Source: an uncultured Eubacteriales bacterium | GTDB taxonomy: Bacteria; Bacillota; Clostridia; Oscillospirales; CAG-272 | NCBI GenBank assembly: GCA_934446365.1 | Contig: CAKSDZ010000002.1 | Span: 37,751-101,750 of the forward strand | Direction of reading: 5' to 3' | DNA length: 64,000 bases | Shown: positions 5,335 through 59,683 of the stretch, piece after piece | Numbering within the stretch: position 1 is the stretch's first letter | Layout: the number at the start of each line of letters is the position of its first letter | Position numbers and translations under genes: made by a program | The notes under the pieces: generated by a model | Told to the model about the DNA's origin: nothing | Seen by the model: the letters and a program-made list of their open reading frames with translations, nothing else | The model's database searches: none

Positions 5335-6399
5335 TTACATATTGTTAGCAAATATTTCGGAAATTATGGTGTTCCTCATGGAATCCACCTTGGAAAAATC
5401 GATATATTCGCCGTAAATTTTTTCCGCTTCCGCGTGAAAGCGTCCGGCATCCGCCAGCGCTGTCAGCGCGCCGTCCATCAGCGATGCCGCACATTTTTCC
5501 GAGAAGCGGAGCCGTCCGCGGTGCGCGGCAAGCTTTTCCCTTGACGCAAATCTTGAAATATTGATTGTTTTATCGAAAGCTTCCGCCTCCGTCTCGCCGC
5601 ACACCGCGAAGAATACATTTTCCCCGTCTACAAAAACGCCCTCCGTGCGCGAGGGCAGCAGCGGCGTCGGGCAAACCGTCATGGAAATCCCCGCGCGCTC
5701 GATCGCGATGCAAAGGCGCGTCATAAAAACATAACCGAGCCCGTATTTATCGGTGACGGCATAGGTCTTTTCCGCTTTTTTGCGAAACGTATCGAGCGTG
5801 ACCTTTCCCGACGTTCCGATCGCGGATAAATACCGGCGAGAGACGCCGCCTGTCTTTGCTTTTTTCATCGACGACACAATCCGCGCGATGGCGGCGTCCG
5901 CCTTTTCCGTGAGAAAAGCCGGCATGGCAAGCTCCGCAATCTCCCGCTCCATGCGTCCCGCGGCGGAAAGATACCGGTATGCCGTGCGGTAGGAGTCCCG
6001 CTTCTCCGATATCAGCGAAATCAGACGTGCGCGCTGCTCCTCCAGCCCCGCAAAATCGAAAGCCTCCCCGAGATTGACGATCCTTTCCACGGCGCCGGGA
6101 TACACGGGATCGGTCATATGCGGGGCGGTCCCGTCGATCACGGCGATGCCGAGCTTCGGAATCAGAACGCCGTCAAGCGAGCTTGTGTCGGAGGAGCAGT
6201 AATCATATTCCACCTCATATCCGTTCGCCTCGGCGGCAAAGCCGACGCTTTTCATAAGCGTCGATTTCCCCGTGCCGGGACCTCCTTTGAGTATGTAAAT
6301 GCGATTCAGCTTCTCCGGCGGGAATATTTCGCCGAACAGACTGAAAAAGCCTCCCTCGGTATTGGCAGCGGCAAAAAATCTTGTCGTATAGTTCTCCAT
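5335..6399 (-). CDS. uncharacterised P-loop NTPase
   Basis: Walker A motif ILKGGPGTGKSTLM. Start placed at MENYTTRF with GAAAGAGGAG upstream. The longer track ORF is unsupported. Confidence 0.6.
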   Translation of the reverse strand: MENYTTRFFAAANTEGGFFSLFGEIFPPEKLNRIYILKGGPGTGKSTLMKSVGFAAEANGYEVEYDYCSSDTSSLDGVLIPKLGIAVIDGTAPHMTDPVYPGAVERIVNLGEAFDFAGLEEQRARLISLISEKRDSYRTAYRYLSAAGRMEREIAELAMPAFLTEKADAAIARIVSSMKKAKTGGVSRRYLSAIGTSGKVTLDTFRKKAEKTYAVTDKYGLGYVFMTRLCIAIERAGISMTVCPTPLLPSRTEGVFVDGENVFFAVCGETEAEAFDKTINISRFASREKLAAHRGRLRFSEKCAASLMDGALTALADAGRFHAEAEKIYGEYIDFSKVDSMRNTIISEIFANNM

Positions 6400-6577: not shown

Positions 6578-6607
6578 TTGACAGACAGAAGCACTCCGGT
6601 GTATAAT
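6578..6607 (+). promoter_or_regulatory. sigma-A-type promoter upstream of rpsU
   Basis: TTGACA (6578-6583), 18-nt spacer, TATAAT (6602-6607). Confidence 0.5.
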
Positions 6608-27682: not shown

Positions 27683-29317
27683 TCAATCTCCAACGACAAC
27701 GCTACTATTACCATTCTTATCATTTTGTTTCCAATAATTAGTGGTAGCATTTGTGTTATTCGTTGTATCGCTGTGGAGGAACACCTTAATATTGGCGCTC
27801 GTCTGACCGACAATGCCGTAATTCCATGTTGACGTCGAATTTGTTGTATCGTTCGATGTCACAGAGCCGTTGCTGGTGCAATTCTTAATAATGACGCTGT
27901 TTGCATCTCCTTCTGTTTCAGGTGCAAATTCAGAGTTCTGTGCAACCGAGAAATTACGTGCATATCCGATAATACCGGCAGCAAAGTGATAACCGGTTTT
28001 CAGCTCTTTTGCGGTGGAAACGACTGTCGCATTGTTGATACAATTTTCAATCGTGCCGAAACCGCCGCCGACAATACCGCCGACACGGTAATTGTTTTTC
28101 ACAGAACCGTTAACCGTTACATTCTTGACTGTACCACCATACAGATATCCGACCGCACCGCCGACGAGAACGCCGTCCGCACCGGTATCGGAAATATCAT
28201 AGTTCACTTCAAGAACGAGATTTTCGAGAACTGCGCCCTCTCCAAGAGAAGCAACAAAGCCAACGCCATATTTATCCGCGTTACCGGTTACCTTATCAAC
28301 AGAAATCGCAAAACCGTTCTTCGCGGCATTGAAAGAAGTATCGATCTTGATACCGGAAATGGTGACAGGGTTTGCGGCATCCGTACCCTTGATGGTGCCC
28401 TCAAATGTCGCGCCTGTTCCAATCGGTGTCCATGTGGAACCGGAAAGAGGGATATCTTCCGTAAGTTCAATCGTCACACCCTTAAAGGTCACGCCTTCCG
28501 CAGAAAGTCCTGCAATGGATTTGAACTCGGAAATCGAAAGTCCGTCTTTTCCTCCGACCTTCAACGTCAAGGGAGTACCGGAAGCGGCTGCTTCAATGGC
28601 AGCTTGCTTTTCTGCATACCAACCATAATCGCCGGCAACGCCGTTGCGAATGTAAAGAGCAAGCGTTTCAGTAACGATTCGATTTGCTTCCTCTGCCGTC
28701 AGTGCGGAACTGCTCGAATCGGAAATTGCCTGTTTTACAGCTTCCGTTACCGAGGTTACGGCACCATCGGAAATCGCCTTTACAATCGATTGAACCTGAG
28801 TAGCCGTCAGAGAATTGGCACTTGCCGCTTCCTTGATCTGGTTGATTTGGCTTGCACTGAGGGTGACGGTGGAGCTTGCCTGATATTTCTTTACAATGGC
28901 TTCCACCTGTGTCGCTGTCAACTGACCTTGGAGAGAATTTTCAATGATATACTTGATCTGCTCCTCGGTAACACCCGTATTGCCGGAACCGAGACTGTCG
29001 GCATACTTTTTGATTGCAGCATCAACAGCTTTAGAAACGTCTTCAGATGAAGCGCCTGCATCAATGCCTTTCAGACCTTCCGCAATGGCAACCTCGATAT
29101 CCTCCCAGCTGAGCCAGTCGGCATTTTCGAGCTTTTTGATGATATCATCCGATTTTTGCTCAAGCTCCGCCTGCTTCATCTCCTGTTCTTGGCGGCTCTT
29201 TTCCGCTTTGTTTACAACATTCGCAAACACGGCGATCATCACACCCGCGAGAATCGCGATGACGGCGATGACGATGACGAGCTCTACCAGCGTAAAGCCC
29301 CTCTTCTTTTGTTTCAT
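27683..29317 (-). CDS. modular type IV pilin: pilin N-terminus, helical repeat linker, and GLUG-motif/beta-helix-like C-terminal module
   Basis: MKQKKRG|FTLVELVIVIAVIAILAGVMIAVFANVV. Next come LTATQV..IVK-type repeats. The C-terminus has VGGAVGYLYGGTVKNVTVNGSV..VGGIVGGGFGTIENCINNATV..AAGIIGYA..IIKNCTSNGSV. Confidence 0.75.
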   Translation of the reverse strand: MKQKKRGFTLVELVIVIAVIAILAGVMIAVFANVVNKAEKSRQEQEMKQAELEQKSDDIIKKLENADWLSWEDIEVAIAEGLKGIDAGASSEDVSKAVDAAIKKYADSLGSGNTGVTEEQIKYIIENSLQGQLTATQVEAIVKKYQASSTVTLSASQINQIKEAASANSLTATQVQSIVKAISDGAVTSVTEAVKQAISDSSSSALTAEEANRIVTETLALYIRNGVAGDYGWYAEKQAAIEAAASGTPLTLKVGGKDGLSISEFKSIAGLSAEGVTFKGVTIELTEDIPLSGSTWTPIGTGATFEGTIKGTDAANPVTISGIKIDTSFNAAKNGFAISVDKVTGNADKYGVGFVASLGEGAVLENLVLEVNYDISDTGADGVLVGGAVGYLYGGTVKNVTVNGSVKNNYRVGGIVGGGFGTIENCINNATVVSTAKELKTGYHFAAGIIGYARNFSVAQNSEFAPETEGDANSVIIKNCTSNGSVTSNDTTNSTSTWNYGIVGQTSANIKVFLHSDTTNNTNATTNYWKQNDKNGNSSVVVGD

Positions 29318-29381: not shown

Positions 29382-29411
29382 AAAAAACGAGGTACCCCGT
29401 GAGGGGGTACC
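29382..29411 (-). terminator. intrinsic-terminator-like hairpin inside the pilin leader (candidate attenuator)
   Basis: On the minus strand: GGTACCCC-CTCAC-GGGGTACC followed by TCGTTTTTTG. It lies about 65 nt upstream of the pilin ATG and downstream of the promoter at 29492-29521. Confidence 0.55.
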
Positions 29412-29491
29412 CCGTGAGGGGGCGTTTCCCGCGCACTTCTCGTGCGCGTAAAACGCCCCGAATTGCCGGAAGCAATTCTTTGCTGTTTCCC

Positions 29492-29521
29492 ATTATATCA
29501 TATTCTTCTTCTTTTTGTCAA
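29492..29521 (-). promoter_or_regulatory. strong sigma-A-type promoter with extended -10 for pilin operon
   Basis: On the minus strand: TTGACA (29521-29516), 18-nt spacer ending in TGa, TATAAT (29497-29492). Confidence 0.6.
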
Positions 29522-29600: not shown

Positions 29601-30401
29601 TCACACCGTGTCCGTGCCCCACGCGATATAGCCGCCGCGGCTGTCCCGGGACACACAGATATCCCGCACTGTCTTGGGGAAATCGATTTTTTCTCCGGTC
29701 TGACGCGAAATGACGGTATTGCCATACCGATAGAAAGCCCCAGTCTCAATGAGCGCCAAATATTCCTCCAATGTGATTTTCATTCGATAAATGATTTCCG
29801 CATGCGGATTTCCGACATAGCGCAGATGCCATGGCTCATAATCTACACCGGTACGCTTTTCCGCCCACAACGGATAACGGATGATGAATCCGAAGCGATG
29901 CGCGTTTTTCGCCATCCATTTCCCTGTTTTCGACATGATAAAGCGGCGCTGTGCGTAGCCCTCCACCTTGATGTCCGCCGAAAGGCCGGAATGATGCTCG
30001 CTCTCGCCCGGCTTTGCAGCAAACGGATTGACGCCGTAAATGGACTCTTGAAATGCAAGGGTGCGATAAACGCTCGTAAAAAGGATTTTTTCCCCACATG
30101 CCGCCTCGCTCGCACGGATAAGCTCCGCAAGCGGCTGCACGGCTTCCCCGGCAATCAGATTTTTTTCATCCAGTGAAACAAGCGCCTCCGTCCTATCCGT
30201 TGTAATCGGATAGTCAGAGCTCACAAGAATCAGGCTGTCACACTGCCGTGCATCCTCTATCGCCACGGTATGCAAGTCCTCCGGCGAAATCCTTGTCAGA
30301 ATATTTTTTTCATGTCGTCTCACCACGTCGAAAAGCCCGTACGTATAATAATATTTATAATTCATGAGCCTGTTTTTCAGGCTCTTTCCTGTCGGCGGCA
30401 T
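29601..30401 (-). CDS. VanY-type D-alanyl-D-alanine carboxypeptidase family protein (peptidase M15B), no signal peptide or TM seen
   Basis: SEHHSGLSADI and EPWHLRYVG zinc-peptidase motifs. The ATG at 30401 sits 1 nt after the comFC stop (TAAAATG). Confidence 0.75.
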   Translation of the reverse strand: MPPTGKSLKNRLMNYKYYYTYGLFDVVRRHEKNILTRISPEDLHTVAIEDARQCDSLILVSSDYPITTDRTEALVSLDEKNLIAGEAVQPLAELIRASEAACGEKILFTSVYRTLAFQESIYGVNPFAAKPGESEHHSGLSADIKVEGYAQRRFIMSKTGKWMAKNAHRFGFIIRYPLWAEKRTGVDYEPWHLRYVGNPHAEIIYRMKITLEEYLALIETGAFYRYGNTVISRQTGEKIDFPKTVRDICVSRDSRGGYIAWGTDTV

Positions 30402-30402
30402 T

Positions 30403-31137
30403 TTATAGTTTCCCTTCTCTTTTTTCCTGCTTGCGGTACGGCGTGCGCGCAACCGAAGCGACAACGACCTTGGTATATCCAGCCTCGTGTGCCAAACGGA
30501 CAAGCTTTGCGGCCGTACTTCCGGTGGTCACAACGTCATCGATGATAATCAGTCTGCCGGTCGGATGCAATCGGCCGCGGCAAAGCTCATAGCTTTTTTC
30601 CGCGTTTTCCCCGCGCTCCGCCGTACTCAGCGTTTTCTGCTGCTGTGAACGGCGCGCATGACGGAAAATGTCCACCATCGGAATCCCCAGTCTATCGGAA
30701 ATTCCGCGGCATAAAGCTTCCGCCTGATCAAAGCCATAAAGCCGTATGCTTTTCGGACTGCGCGGCGCAAACGTCATATGACAGTCCTCAAAGTCACCGT
30801 CAAGCAGATGGGAAACTGCCTCGGCAAGCTCACCGGACAAAAATTTTTGCAGCACACGCAGATTTTTCCGTTTCAGCAAATAGAGAATGCGGCGCGGCAA
30901 TTCCCCGTCATATTCAAACAAATGCACGGCGGACACCGCTCTCTCGCCGGCAAGCTTTTCCGGCATACAGCGGCAAAGCGTCTGCGGCTTCCCGCACAGC
31001 TTACAGGGACGGCGCTTCCCTTTCTCATATTCAAGCCTGCATTTCGGGCAGAACACGGAACCTGCCGAATCGGTCAGCACCTCGCCGCAGAAAATACATT
31101 TTCGGACAAATAAAAGTCCCTTTAAAAACTCAATCAT
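30403..31137 (-). CDS. comFC: ComF family protein (ComFC-like phosphoribosyltransferase with N-terminal zinc finger)
   Basis: CIFCG...CPKC...CKLCG N-terminus. PRTase motif RLIIIDDVVTTGSTA. Confidence 0.85.
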   Translation of the reverse strand: MIEFLKGLLFVRKCIFCGEVLTDSAGSVFCPKCRLEYEKGKRRPCKLCGKPQTLCRCMPEKLAGERAVSAVHLFEYDGELPRRILYLLKRKNLRVLQKFLSGELAEAVSHLLDGDFEDCHMTFAPRSPKSIRLYGFDQAEALCRGISDRLGIPMVDIFRHARRSQQQKTLSTAERGENAEKSYELCRGRLHPTGRLIIIDDVVTTGSTAAKLVRLAHEAGYTKVVVASVARTPYRKQEKREGKL

Positions 31138-35023: not shown

Positions 35024-35152
35024 TAAAAACTCGCTTCCGTTTACCCCGAAAGCGAGTTTTCTCTCCGTACTCATCTATCGGGAATTGGCACCTTATGTAA
35101 CACAGGTTGCCGGGCTTCATCGGGCCAGTCCCTCAGCCGCTCTTGATAAGTT
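35024..35152 (-). promoter_or_regulatory. SAM-I (S-box) riboswitch with terminator, upstream of metK
   Basis: On the minus strand: CTTATCAAGAGCGGCTGAGGGACTGGCCCGATGAAGCCCGGCAACC...GGTGCCAATTCC...AGATGAG, followed by AAAACTCGCTTTCGGGGTAAACGGAAGCGAGTTTTT. Confidence 0.85.
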
Positions 35153-35952: not shown

Positions 35953-36120
35953 TAAAAAATTCCCCCTCCAAAAGAGGGGGAAAGCGCAAAAATCACGCAT
36001 GATTTTTTATCTTTTCTCATCCGGACTATACCGTCGGTGCAGGAATTTCACCTGCTCGGCGCCGTATGGCGTTCGCGGACTTTACCGCCGATGTGGAATT
36101 TCACCAACCCCCAAAGATAT
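35953..36120 (-). promoter_or_regulatory. FMN riboswitch (RFN element) with terminator
   Basis: On the minus strand: GGGGGTTGGTGAAATTCCACATCGGCGGTAAAGTCCGCGAACGCC...CAGGTGAAATTCCTGCACCGACGGTATAGTCCGGATGAGAAAAG, then TCCCCCTC-TTTTG-GAGGGGGA plus ATTTTTT. Confidence 0.85.
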
Positions 36121-36143
36121 AAGCATGTAAACATGACGAACGG

Positions 36144-48961: not shown

Positions 48962-48990
48962 AGTATAGCACCGAAAAGTCAAGTTGTCAA
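48962..48990 (-). promoter_or_regulatory. sigma-A-type promoter upstream of rpoB
   Basis: On the minus strand: TTGACA (48990-48985), 17-nt spacer, TATACT (48967-48962). The leader is about 160 nt. Confidence 0.5.
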
Positions 48991-56762: not shown

Positions 56763-56798
56763 AAAAAAGCGCGGATGCTTTGGCATCCGCGCTTTTTT
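56763..56798. terminator. bidirectional rho-independent terminator after the repeat-protein gene
   Basis: AAAAAA-GCGCGGATGC-TTTG-GCATCCGCGC-TTTTTT. Confidence 0.75.
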
Positions 56799-56806
56799 CT
56801 TATAAA

Positions 56807-59044
56807 TTAAAAGGTTTTTCCTTTGTTTTTATTCTTCGACATAATGAGATAGACAGCAGCGCCCGCGATGGCAAGCGTGACGACTACAATGATGATCGGC
56901 ACCACGATATTCGGACTGTTCTCCTCGCCCTTTGTGACGAAAATCGCATCCACGCCGTTAAGCTCCGAGCCGTCGATGGCGATATCCAGTCCCTTTCTGC
57001 TGTAATTTTCCAGCGTATAGAATGCGTTTCCGCGAAGAACGACAAGAGACACGTCGTAATCCTTGAAAGCAGCATCAATCGAAAGCGTCATTTTCATATC
57101 CGACGCAATGGGAGTTTCTACGCCGTCCACAAGAAGCCTATAAACATAACCTTCATCGAACTCCCGATACTTCTTATACTCCACCGCCACATCGATCGGC
57201 ATCGCTCCGATTTCAAACAGCACATTCTTGGAAGCCGTGGCACCGGTAACATAGAGAGAACCGCTGATGCTTGTGAGCGTCTTCTCGACACCGCTCTTCA
57301 CGGTTTTCGTCACCTCGGAATACCCGCAGATGCTGCAAGTCTTTGTCGTAGTCTTTCCTTTTACCACGGGTTCTCCGAATACATGTCCCGTGCTCGGGTC
57401 AACAGCGCTGTCCACATAACCGCAAAGCTCGCAGACACGTTCCTTCAAGCCGTCCGTAATACAGGTCTTTGCACTGACCACCTTCCATTCGCCATAGGAA
57501 TGTGCGTTCGGATCCACAGCGACCGTTCTCGTCTCACGTTTCCCGCAGACCGAGCAGACACGCTCCTCCGTGCCCGCCGCCTTACAGGTCGGAGCCGCCG
57601 TTACCGTCCATGCCCCCCAGGTGTGAGAAGTAAGCGGGATCGTCTGCGTGTCCTCCTCTGCGCAAAGAGAGCATGTCCGCCTCTCCGTTCCGGTTGAAAC
57701 GCAGGTCGCCTCCTTGGTTGTCACCCAAGAACTCCAGCTATGGCCGGATTTTGCAATTGTTTCCGTATCAACTTCACCACAGATAATACAAATACGCGAT
57801 CTGGTTCCGGTCGATACACACGTAGCTTCTTTTGTGATTGTCCAAGCACCCCAGCTGTGGCCAAGCGGTGCGATAATCTCCGTTTCGATGTCATCACAGA
57901 CCGAGCATCTATGATACCGGCTTCCGGAGGTCGTGCAGCCCGCCTGCACCGTCACCGTCCATTCGCCGAAAGCGTGATCCGCCAGCGGAAGCTCTCGTGT
58001 TTCCGTCGCGCCGCAGGTCGGGCACTCATAAACGGCAGAGCCCTTTGTCGTACAGGTAGAAGCCGTTACGACCCTTTTCAGGGTATAGAGCGCCGAATCG
58101 TGCGCACACTGATTGTCCGCCTCCGAGACCTGTCCGCAAACCGTGCATTTCTGCTTATAAACGCCGTTCTCCAAATAACGTGCGCCCCATGTATGTCCCG
58201 TAGCCGGGGCCAGCGTCCACGAAATCGTCCCGCAAAGCTTGCATTTGTAATAGCCGTAGCCGGCCGTAGTACAAGTCGCGTCCTGTCCTTGGGACGGCGT
58301 ATAGCGCTTGGAATAATCAAAATCATGATCCGTCAGAAGCAAGGTTTCCGTCTTGACAACATAGCCGCAGGTCGTGCAGTACTGCTCGCGCGTGCCGGTG
58401 GTTGTGCAGGTCGCTTCTTTTGTAACTCTCGAATTCGTATTGCTGTGGTTGCAGATATACACGTTGTGCGTCGTCGTCTGCGAGTCAAAGCCGAAAGAAG
58501 TTCCGTCCGCTTTCTTCGCAGCACCGGAGACTGTAATCTCTCTGATGCGCATAAACGAGAGATCAAGCCACTTCGTATCGACCGGATAGGTGATGGTAAA
58601 AGAACCCGTAGGCGACCGGGAATCCTCTCCTGCGTCCGGAATCGTAATCGTAACCGTCGATACGGAGGCAGTGCCGGCTACCGAAACAAAAGATGATTGT
58701 GAAAGAAACTCTCCGAATAAATAGCCGCTTACGGACGTAGGCCTTTCGAGCGTACTGACCGGTGCCGTCACAACAACGGTTCCGCCGCTGATTTTATTTC
58801 CCGTTTTGGAGCCGACCGAAAATGTCACAGTGAGGGTTTGCAGGGTTTCATTATAGGCACTGCCCGTCACCTCCGCATACAACTGCTCCGTATCGTCATC
58901 CGCGGCGAGAACAGCATGTCCGGAACGACTGTGATCATGGTCACACGCGTCATGCGTGTCGACCGCGGCATTTTCAAATCCGTATGTACCGAAGCAAACC
59001 AAGCACACGGAAAACGCCAGCAGAAACGCTAAAAATTTTTTCAT
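56807..59044 (-). CDS. surface protein with signal peptide, Ig-like N-terminal region, about 10 tandem Cys3-His repeats, beta-rich domain and C-terminal TM anchor
   Basis: Start at MKKFLAFLLAFSVCLVCFG with GGAGGAG upstream. C-terminus is IVVPIIIVVVTLAIAGAAVYLIMSKNKNKGKTF. The repeat array is described under findings. Confidence 0.7.
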   Translation of the reverse strand: MKKFLAFLLAFSVCLVCFGTYGFENAAVDTHDACDHDHSRSGHAVLAADDDTEQLYAEVTGSAYNETLQTLTVTFSVGSKTGNKISGGTVVVTAPVSTLERPTSVSGYLFGEFLSQSSFVSVAGTASVSTVTITIPDAGEDSRSPTGSFTITYPVDTKWLDLSFMRIREITVSGAAKKADGTSFGFDSQTTTHNVYICNHSNTNSRVTKEATCTTTGTREQYCTTCGYVVKTETLLLTDHDFDYSKRYTPSQGQDATCTTAGYGYYKCKLCGTISWTLAPATGHTWGARYLENGVYKQKCTVCGQVSEADNQCAHDSALYTLKRVVTASTCTTKGSAVYECPTCGATETRELPLADHAFGEWTVTVQAGCTTSGSRYHRCSVCDDIETEIIAPLGHSWGAWTITKEATCVSTGTRSRICIICGEVDTETIAKSGHSWSSWVTTKEATCVSTGTERRTCSLCAEEDTQTIPLTSHTWGAWTVTAAPTCKAAGTEERVCSVCGKRETRTVAVDPNAHSYGEWKVVSAKTCITDGLKERVCELCGYVDSAVDPSTGHVFGEPVVKGKTTTKTCSICGYSEVTKTVKSGVEKTLTSISGSLYVTGATASKNVLFEIGAMPIDVAVEYKKYREFDEGYVYRLLVDGVETPIASDMKMTLSIDAAFKDYDVSLVVLRGNAFYTLENYSRKGLDIAIDGSELNGVDAIFVTKGEENSPNIVVPIIIVVVTLAIAGAAVYLIMSKNKNKGKTF
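57299..58468 (-). repeat. coding tandem repeat array (~39-aa unit, 8 full and 2 partial copies)
   Basis: Residues ~193-582 of the ORF. Each unit follows the pattern H-x-[WFY]-[GS]-x-W...T-C-x3-G-x5-C-x2-C-x10-14. Confidence 0.8.
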
Positions 59045-59209
59045 AGTTTCTCCTCCGAATTTTGACATTGCGACCGTCGCCCAAAAACGGCGATACAACG
59101 ATGAAATCATGTCCGCCAAATATGCGCTTATCGTGTTCTTCTTCAAGCTGCCGTCCTGAAAAAAACGATAAAATCCGCACTTTTCCGCGGCGGAGCGGCT
59201 ACAAGGGCG

Positions 59210-59238
59210 AAAAAATTCCGAATAAGTTTTATTCGGAA
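59210..59238 (-). terminator. perfect hairpin plus T6 immediately downstream of promoter (attenuator, tiny RNA or operator)
   Basis: On the minus strand: TTCCGAATAA-AAC-TTATTCGGAA followed by TTTTTT. It starts about 10 nt after the predicted TSS. Confidence 0.5.
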
Positions 59239-59253
59239 AACAATTCTTATTTC

Positions 59254-59281
59254 ATTATATCCTTTTTTCCGTATTTGTCAA
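59254..59281 (-). promoter_or_regulatory. consensus sigma-A promoter upstream of repeat-protein gene
   Basis: On the minus strand: TTGACA (59281-59276), 16-nt spacer, TATAAT (59259-59254). Confidence 0.6.
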
Positions 59282-59683
59282 GCTGTTTTGCATATCTTTC
59301 ACACATCAAGGCCTTTTCCCGCCGCCGCTTTCATCCGTCCGCCGACGCCAAATAAGCTGTTCCATGCTGAAATTCGGGAAAACAAATTCCACGTTTTTCC
59401 GTATAAATTTCCGTCGGTTCCCTTCATGAAAGGAAAATATGCGGAATGCACTCTGCGCCGGAAAGAGGGCACGAAGACAAAAAGCCGACCATTCTCCAAA
59501 CTTCTTAAAGATTCCTTAAAATTTTGGCAAATTCGTTTTTCCTATTGTGTTATCGAAAAATTTGTAATATAATGTAGGAAATAGAAAAATGCGGCTTTCT
59601 TTCCGCTTGTAAGACGGCTGCAATCTCCCACAAATTTCGACGCGGCATTTCCCGCGCTGCAAAGGAAAGGAACGGTTCATCAC

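Follow-up and report, generated by a model that had tools for sequence, protein, structure and literature searches.

What does it mean for a promoter of full consensus strength to run, within a few nucleotides of its start, into what looks like an intrinsic terminator? This question is raised by the minus strand of a 64,000-nucleotide (nt) stretch of DNA, hereafter the window, from an uncultured Eubacteriales bacterium (GenBank assembly GCA_934446365.1, contig CAKSDZ010000002.1, positions 37,751 to 101,750), where a consensus promoter, a perfect hairpin, and a T-run stand upstream of the gene for a 745-amino-acid repeat protein. A first-pass annotation made from the letters of the window had offered three explanations: conditional antitermination or attenuation, a terminated small RNA (sRNA) of ~40 nt, or an inverted repeat serving as a repressor operator. 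Our analysis favors, at a probability of roughly one-half, a deliberately weak promoter-proximal intrinsic terminator (at ~+10 to +38 of a maximal SigA-type promoter) that would act as the attenuator of a monocistronic surface adhesin-like gene.

A consensus promoter is followed directly by a hairpin and a T-run

The features on which the argument turns are these.

59282-59302, minus strand: conserved UP-element-like block GTGAAAGATATGCAAAACAGC (AAAGAT ... AAAC), directly 5' of the -35 element (11-locus alignment A2)
59281-59254, minus strand: sigma-70/SigA consensus promoter TTGACA-16-TATAAT (12/12 consensus match), with the -35 element at 59281-59276 and the -10 element at 59259-59254
59234-59248, minus strand: initially transcribed "5' box" AAGAATTGTTTTCCG, running into the 5' arm of the hairpin (alignments A2 and A3)
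59238-59216, minus strand: perfect 10-bp hairpin TTCCGAATAA-AAC-TTATTCGGAA, with a core of 8 bp, TTCCGAAT/ATTCGGAA, that is invariant across lineages
59215-59210, minus strand: T6 run (U-tract), directly 3' of the stem
59056-59050 and 59044-59042, minus strand: Shine-Dalgarno sequence GGAGGAG and ATG; the protein start MKKF... is kept in orthologs
56807-59044, minus strand: the regulated gene, encoding the 745-amino-acid protein (from the list of open reading frames)

The promoter, hairpin, T6 run, ribosome-binding site, and ATG reported in the first-pass annotation were all found on the minus strand at the positions listed above. Its layout of the leader also stands, with two figures corrected: the leader from the T-run to the ATG measures 165 nt and not 170, and 15 nt separate the -10 element from the stem. 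Transcription is predicted to start at the A at 59248/59247, which is 6 to 7 nt past the -10 element, and the stem begins ~9 to 10 nt from this predicted start. Premature 3' ends, predicted to fall in the U-tract, would give an RNA of 38 to 41 nt. Within the upstream block, AAAGAT and AAAC are invariant or nearly so in the 11-locus alignment A2, and the block may work as an UP element.

The arrangement of promoter, hairpin, and T-run is real and not a product of chance. Three 12/12 promoters were observed in the window, against 0.01 expected from dinucleotide shuffles; the 23-nt palindrome had zero matches in shuffles; and the 39-nt unit folds at about -10 kcal/mol (z = -3.1), a value matched by 0 of 200 shuffles. 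Of the window promoters that match at least 10/12 consensus positions, the one at 59281-59254 alone has its -10 element no more than 15 nt from a terminator-like site.

Two other promoters of the window deserve mention here. The third 12/12 promoter (6578-6607, plus strand) drives rpsU, the gene for ribosomal protein S21, and hence perfect consensus promoters here appear to mark very highly expressed genes. An 11/12 promoter, TTGACA-17-TATACT (48962-48990, minus strand), is divergent from alaS and is followed within ~70 nt by a hairpin, GCGCCGTCCCGTCGGGC, and T-runs; the region behind it may encode a short RNA or serve as a leader.

Conservation across orthologous loci ends with the T-run

Twelve orthologous loci were compared, and their neighboring PcrA proteins are 89 to 73% identical, which corresponds roughly to genus-to-family depth. 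The arrangement of a VanY-family gene beside the repeat-protein gene is kept in all of the orthologous loci except that of lineage L020. Upstream of the orthologs in eight species-level lineages lies one and the same unit, consisting of AAAGAT...AAAC, the 12/12 promoter, 14 to 16 nt ending in GRAYTGTT, TTCCGAAT-loop-ATTCGGAA, and a T-run of 4 to 7. The promoter itself is a 12/12 match in 11 of the 12 loci, in most of them with a 16-nt spacer. Conservation of the hairpin in orthologous loci, which had been named as a check on the first reading of this DNA, is therefore borne out in eight lineages.

The limits of this conservation are sharp. Mean pairwise identity is 100% in the 5' arm, 97% in the 3' arm, and 87% in the promoter, whereas it is 47% in the loop, 58% in the next 45 nt of the leader, and 51% in the 45 nt after that, with shuffled controls at about 50%. 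With the arms and promoter high and the loop and later leader at the random level, conservation ends exactly with the T-run. A covariance model of the unit (R1), run over 214 kb, matched each orthologous locus once, at 50 to 65 bits, and had no further match. At locus P0012, the leader is identical to that of L017.

A wider scan for the stem and T-run (TTCCGAATN{3,12}ATTCGGAANTTTT) was run on a public metagenome collection that samples this clade poorly and on viral contigs, and the matches listed include more than 118 metagenome loci and 6 viral loci. All but one of the matches listed are generic, often bidirectional terminators in unrelated contexts, without the promoter. The exception, L071, is the same locus in a sister species, and it has the promoter.

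A weak terminator through which the gene would have to be read

In its build, the site is that of an intrinsic terminator: the window has a 10-bp stem, a 3-nt loop, and T6 directly 3' of it, and the eight lineages likewise have stem, loop, and T-run. The hairpin, with its perfect U-tract, is rich in AU and folds at about -9 to -10 kcal/mol, whereas the window's terminators at gene ends and in riboswitch platforms are GC-rich and range from -15 to -34 kcal/mol. The S-adenosylmethionine (SAM) and flavin mononucleotide (FMN) riboswitches of the window (35068-35152 and 36005-36122, minus strand), with terminators of -15 and -16.7 kcal/mol, provided internal standards. Across the lineages, the hairpin has 3 GC pairs, and its stability varies only from -8.2 to -10.7 kcal/mol. 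Given this low stability relative to gene-end and riboswitch terminators, the hairpin could at most be a weak terminator. A precedent from Bacillota is the LoaP/dfn system, in which a dedicated factor overcomes weak, NusA-dependent terminators in the leader (PMC12691694).

Between the -10 element and the ATG, no sigma-70-like site of at least 9/12 was found in 11 of the 12 loci, and the window leader (59045-59209) has none of at least 9/12 inside it. Since no other sigma-70-like promoter precedes the ATG, the gene would depend on read-through of the hairpin and U-tract.

We propose that RNA polymerase would initiate very often, by virtue of the UP-like block and the consensus -35 and -10 elements, that a fraction of the complexes would form the 8- to 10-bp AU-rich hairpin and release the 38- to 41-nt RNA at the U-tract, and that mRNA would be made only by the complexes that read through. 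The ~10 nt before the stem leave no room for an aptamer, a leader peptide, or an element of the T-box, RAT, or ANTAR type; read-through would therefore be set by the elongation complex (through a dependence of the NusA/NusG type), by a trans factor, or by both. Such a factor would bind the conserved single-stranded segment AAGAAYUGYUUUCCGAAU, made up of the 5' tail and the 5' arm, at a point when the 3' arm has yet to emerge. The 3' arm would then be invariant because it complements the recognized 5' segment, while the loop would be free to vary and the U-tract would give termination. The start site, the termination itself, the conditional nature of read-through, and the existence of a factor are what we infer from the sequence. 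Among the explanations first offered for the locus, attenuation or antitermination is the best supported, by the conserved directional unit, the lack of another promoter, and the weak stem, but its version with an upstream antiterminator or sensor is impossible in ~10 nt.

The terminated RNA of ~40 nt would be expected under attenuation anyway, and it could also be the functional product, that is, a stand-alone sRNA that acts in trans by base pairing or protein titration, with the mRNA as a read-through by-product. The conserved unit does end exactly at the T-run, its contiguous conserved 5' segment resembles an sRNA seed, and pairing with the ribosome-binding site of the divergent VanY gene is predicted in the closer relatives (z = -2.9 in the window and -2.3 in L013). 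However, the pairing with these two obvious targets, the VanY ribosome-binding site and that of the repeat-protein gene itself, is inconsistent across orthologs, not being conserved in the distant lineages L016, L017, and L019 (z of at least 0.3), and no complement of the 5' box occurs elsewhere in the window above chance. In addition, the unit is in every case followed immediately, in the same orientation, by the same orthologous gene, for which there is no other promoter, and the terminator stems of sRNAs normally covary. An sRNA acting in trans thus appears rather unlikely.

Nucleotide sensing at the start of the transcript is a further way to control a terminator that leaves no room for any other sensor, as in pyrG. 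By this account, A would be added reiteratively at the start when GTP is scarce, and the poly(A) would pair with GUUUU and weaken the terminator. In every lineage, two to six A residues followed by G stand at the expected start (AAG, AAAG, AAAAG, AAAAAAG), UUUU precedes and begins the stem, and slippage at A-repeats is the commonest type found in a Firmicute (PMC4448216). Nevertheless, A:U pairing of 4 to 6 nt with a 7-nt loop would be negligible next to the G:C pairing of pyrG and would remove at most 2 stem pairs, the gene is unrelated to nucleotide metabolism, and the invariance of CCGAAU/AUUCGG would go unexplained. We regard this mechanism as very improbable.

The 5' box recurs in the leader of a pilin-like gene

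Within the 5' box, GRAYTGTTTT is conserved (alignments A2 and A3), and the conserved run is contiguous into the 5' arm. The leader of a pilin-like gene elsewhere in the window starts with the same box, AAGAATTGCTTCCG (29480-29467), 11 nt past its -10 element, and AAGAATTG.TT.CCG is therefore found behind both consensus promoters of envelope-protein genes in the window. The alignment score of the box was reached by 14 of 2000 shuffles, and the L012 version matches at 14 of 15 positions.

In the region 29382-29521 (minus strand), the second 12/12 promoter of the window (29521-29492) drives this leader of ~105 nt, which belongs to gene 27683-29317 and so to a 544-amino-acid protein bearing prepilin N-methylation and GLUG motifs. 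Its 5' hairpin, GAAUUGCU-UCC-GGCAAUUC, is accompanied by a second hairpin and by a strong terminator (29413-29387) with U6, and the leader has no Rfam match even at E <= 10. Directly upstream of it, gene 29601-30503 (minus strand) encodes a second VanY-family carboxypeptidase (Pfam E = 1.9e-24). Since both box-bearing leaders lie between a VanY-type peptidase and a surface-protein gene, they may form a paralogous module.

Judging from these conserved letters, a trans factor that reads the 5' segment AAGAAYUGYUUUCCG probably modulates the attenuator. A more specific proposal, which we put forward tentatively and with more doubt than confidence, is that the 5' box AAGAAYUGYUU(U)CCG is what a dedicated antitermination factor acting in trans, or an RNA-binding regulator, recognizes in controlling a small surface-appendage regulon in a family of uncultured gut Clostridia. 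If this were true, the regulon would include the Cys3His-repeat adhesin-like protein encoded downstream of the hairpin and the prepilin-type protein of gene 27683-29317, each beside a VanY-family peptidase. The element would then represent a new class of factor-dependent attenuator, distinct from LoaP, RfaH/UpxY, Q, ANTAR, and BglG. In the leader of the repeat-protein gene, the box overlaps the 5' arm of a sensor-less minimal terminator.

Points against an attenuator, and what they say for a stabilizer or an operator

Several observations weigh against the attenuator. The first-pass annotation had suggested a search for covariation, and none was found: 8 of the 9 pairs never vary, so that the support for base pairing is indirect. 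Zero covariation is neutral as to structure, and a protein-bound DNA palindrome would show invariant arms too. Lineage L018 keeps only a degenerate remnant of the unit (19 bits). In lineage L020 the promoter is kept, with an unrelated GC hairpin at equal distance (-8.4 kcal/mol) and no T-run, a pattern by which a hairpin as such, for instance for mRNA stability, might be the older feature. Among the genes within +/-10 kb, there is no candidate factor gene and none of the KOW/NusG family. The similarity of the box to the pilin-like leader was noticed post hoc, from the window leaders and L012. Finally, the start, the premature 3' ends, and the conditionality are all predicted.

The pattern in L020 brings in mRNA stability. 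Leaders that stabilize mRNA at the 5' end are known from aprE, ermC, and S-layer genes, and the hairpin could similarly be a stabilizing or processing hairpin that counters 5'-end-dependent decay (RNase J/Y), with a T-run that is incidental or has another role. The distance from the -10 element to the stem is steady at 14 to 16 nt in all lineages, the L020 hairpin occupies the same position, and the combination of a maximal promoter with a long leader is generally known from abundant envelope proteins, such as those with S-layer leaders. The L020 hairpin is, however, no better than shuffles (35/200). A stabilizer needs no T-run, yet all eight motif-bearing lineages retain it even as the sequence beside it randomizes; its stem should covary freely, yet the arms are invariant; and the predicted 5' tail of ~9 to 10 nt is above the few nucleotides that are usually tolerated. 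On balance, we consider a stabilizer unlikely.

The invariance of the arms is also what base-specific protein contacts would lead one to expect, since for these both 8-bp arms would stay invariant with no compensatory change, as they do here. A dimeric repressor bound to the DNA palindrome TTCCGAAT-N-ATTCGGAA at +10 to +32 would block promoter escape or elongation in the manner of CIRCE/HrcA, and a site just past the start is classical for roadblock repressors. The spacing of the arms speaks against this, as it is N6 in L012, N7 in most lineages, N8 in L021, and N9 in L013 and L014, while hairpin stability stays within its narrow range; such differences in spacing would turn one half-site against the other by as much as ~100 degrees, more than a rigid dimer can accommodate. 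The flanks are asymmetric, with YTGTT on the 5' side versus a T-run on the 3' side only, which fits a directional transcript feature. The palindrome is single in 302 kb of orthologous loci, among the more than 118 metagenomic occurrences listed it has the promoter context only at the orthologous locus, and the related box of the pilin-like leader stands in a different palindrome register. The repressor operator of the first-pass annotation is accordingly disfavored, and we judge it quite improbable.

Comparison of the attenuator with known systems

Read as an attenuator, the element invites comparison with five known systems. At the lambdoid PR'-tR' site, a strong constitutive late promoter gives a short terminated RNA by default, and Q modifies the elongation complex near the promoter. 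The locus described here resembles it in its strong promoter, in the predicted short default RNA, and in the need for read-through to reach what lies downstream. The phage system, however, requires that the promoter contain a Q-binding element and that polymerase make a sigma-dependent pause at a -10-like sequence in the initially transcribed region, whereas here the -10-like AAGAAT (4/6) is unconserved (AAGAAC, AAGGAC, and GTGGAC in orthologs) and there was no sign of a Q-like gene. In CIRCE, which is found at several operons per genome and may act on the DNA as well as on the RNA, the spacer is fixed at 9 bp. CIRCE/HrcA shares with the present element an invariant inverted repeat just downstream of a SigA promoter; it differs from it in that the spacer here is N6 to N9, the T-run is one-sided, and there is a single copy per locus.

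The LoaP leaders (dfn/mln) of Bacillus velezensis (PMC12691694) are similar in that they occur in Bacillota, have a constitutive promoter and a weak NusA-dependent leader terminator that must be read through, and rely for read-through on a small leader RNA element of conserved sequence, with no aptamer. In contrast to the present locus, where the sole hairpin is the terminator, LoaP has a separate UNCG-tetraloop hairpin upstream of the terminator. The loops here vary (AAC, CCAUCU, AAAAUAA, GCGAU, and others) and are neither tetraloops nor UNCG, no NusG paralogue lies within +/-10 kb, and the target is a single gene as opposed to the long biosynthetic operon of LoaP.

The CTP-sensitive pyrG attenuator of B. 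subtilis, which works by reiterative transcription (Meng, Turnbough & Switzer 2004, cited in PMC4448216), has a terminator hairpin that begins within the first tens of nucleotides and no conventional sensor, and in both systems conservation extends over the initially transcribed region and the terminator's 5' strand. In contrast to the present element, pyrG has a GGG start, places poly(G) on a C/U-rich arm, and is a nucleotide-biosynthesis gene, whereas the start here is A-rich and the gene encodes a surface protein. The hydroxymethylpyrimidine pyrophosphate (HMP-PP; thiS) riboswitch (PMC6478431) likewise has an ordinary-looking terminator that is abnormally conserved and tied to one gene family. 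It has a conserved loop and an exclusive alternative fold (P1 plus pseudoknot), whereas the loop here is 47% identical and the helix is plain; no conserved or covarying alternative fold of the hairpin was found among the orthologous loci. The element is thus an undescribed instance of a leader intrinsic terminator/attenuator and belongs to no specific named family.

The repeat-protein gene and its neighbors

The 745-amino-acid protein has a signal peptide and some nine Cys3His mini-repeats and is anchored in the membrane at its C terminus. The repeat unit shows an invariant C-x(8-9)-C-x2-C ... H pattern in ~9 copies, and the repeats are predicted to be small beta-hairpin (zinc-ribbon-like) beads in an extracellular protein. 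No sequence match was obtained in Pfam, NCBIfam, or the Protein Data Bank (PDB). An AlphaFold model made from 17 orthologs (predicted local distance difference test [pLDDT] of 77) is all-beta, with small hairpin repeats between two beta-sandwich domains, and the latter have a weak and generic fold similarity to the Ig-like domains of Gram-positive pilins and adhesins. In this model, the protein looks like a surface stalk or adhesin-like protein. Full-length orthologs are 95 to 39% identical. Similar repeats are present in many large surface proteins of Clostridia that also have cohesin, dockerin, SLH, CAP, or LRR domains.

The gene ends as follows.

56763-56798, minus strand: strong bidirectional gene-end terminator (GCGCGGATGC..GCATCCGCGC plus T6, about -19 kcal/mol)

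The next gene, encoding PcrA, has its own promoter-like site (56446-56418), and from this site and the strong terminator we take the gene at 56807-59044 to be monocistronic. On the other side, a VanY-family D,D-carboxypeptidase gene runs divergently from 59684. The organism is common in gut assemblies, its VanY protein being indexed in 160 blocks.

Two structured RNAs were noted at orthologous loci. In L017, a Gut-1 RNA (RF01706; 51.6 bits against a gathering score of 50) lies at 5348-5418, just downstream of the repeat-protein gene. In L020, the place of the VanY gene is taken by a Na+/H+ antiporter gene with a lysine riboswitch (2417-2589).

The remaining leader and the intergenic region

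Past the T-run, the transcript would continue through the following segment.

59045-59209, minus strand: remaining leader of 165 nt, unconserved past close relatives, holding a second hairpin (59190-59175) and a long imperfect hairpin (59171-59128)

A second, weaker hairpin with a T-run had been noted in the first-pass annotation. The hairpin exists (CCGCGG..GTGCGG at 59190-59175), but the T7 after it belongs to another stem, as the 5' arm of a different inverted repeat (59171-59158/59141-59128). This T7 is broken in the sister species L008 (TTTTTTT to GGTGTCTTC), and the element is absent from more distant orthologs. The annotation had also recognized no known riboswitch class in the leader, and Rfam agrees: the leader has no match at E <= 10, and no leader has a match at the gathering score in the whole window and nine orthologous loci.

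Other explanations for the region were tried and rejected. Coding potential finds no support, as a 66-amino-acid open reading frame at 59299-59499 has no Pfam match and is interrupted in L008 by an indel of 11 nt, and mini-open reading frames spanning the hairpin differ among lineages in frame and length and are unconserved. An inverton is not indicated either, given that there is no suitable flanking inverted repeat and that 7 other contigs of the same species are identical to the window and in the same orientation.

The intergenic region has further repeats and conserved blocks. The 11-nt sequence TTTTTCCGTAT (minus strand, ATACGGAAAAA) is repeated exactly and in direct orientation at 59264-59274, in the promoter spacer, and at 59394-59404, 130 nt upstream. 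It resembles the 3' arm ATTCGGAA and is kept only in the closer lineages (window, L013, and L015); neither this spacer repeat, ATACGGAAAAA, nor a half-site near-copy at 59372-59383 is conserved in distant lineages. A block of ~95 nt at 59500-59595, around the likely VanY promoter (TATAAT at 59568-59573, plus strand), is 100% identical between the window and L008, while the flanking intergenic DNA differs, and on this comparison it appears to be a second strongly constrained element of the intergenic region. In the distant subclade, a near-invariant leader block of ~90 nt (GACTCTGAAATCTTGCCTTCGCTTCCGGAAAAACGGGAGACCGGTGCATAAGGCG...GGCAAGAAAACAG) lies 3' of the terminator (L016, 2860-2950; L017, 2830-2925; L021, 2865-2955; L019, 3015-3110). 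RNAalifold gives it a multi-stem fold with one compensatory pair only, it has no Rfam match, and it is absent from the window leader.

Biological significance

Should the hairpin be only a constitutive dampener or a stabilizer, it would be an ordinary feature of a highly expressed gene. If the attenuator reading is true, the unit would be a compact undescribed cis-regulatory element, absent from Rfam, that gates a conserved uncharacterized surface protein of abundant uncultured human-gut Clostridia. It would also mean that a terminator ~10 nt from the start can be a conserved regulatory unit, with control coming either from the machinery of elongation or from a factor recognizing a short RNA box at the 5' end; few sensor-less systems of this kind are known in Bacillota, pyrG and LoaP being examples. 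The invariant stem, together with the box in the leader of a second envelope gene, would offer a concrete way to track down the factor and a possible regulon of surface structures.

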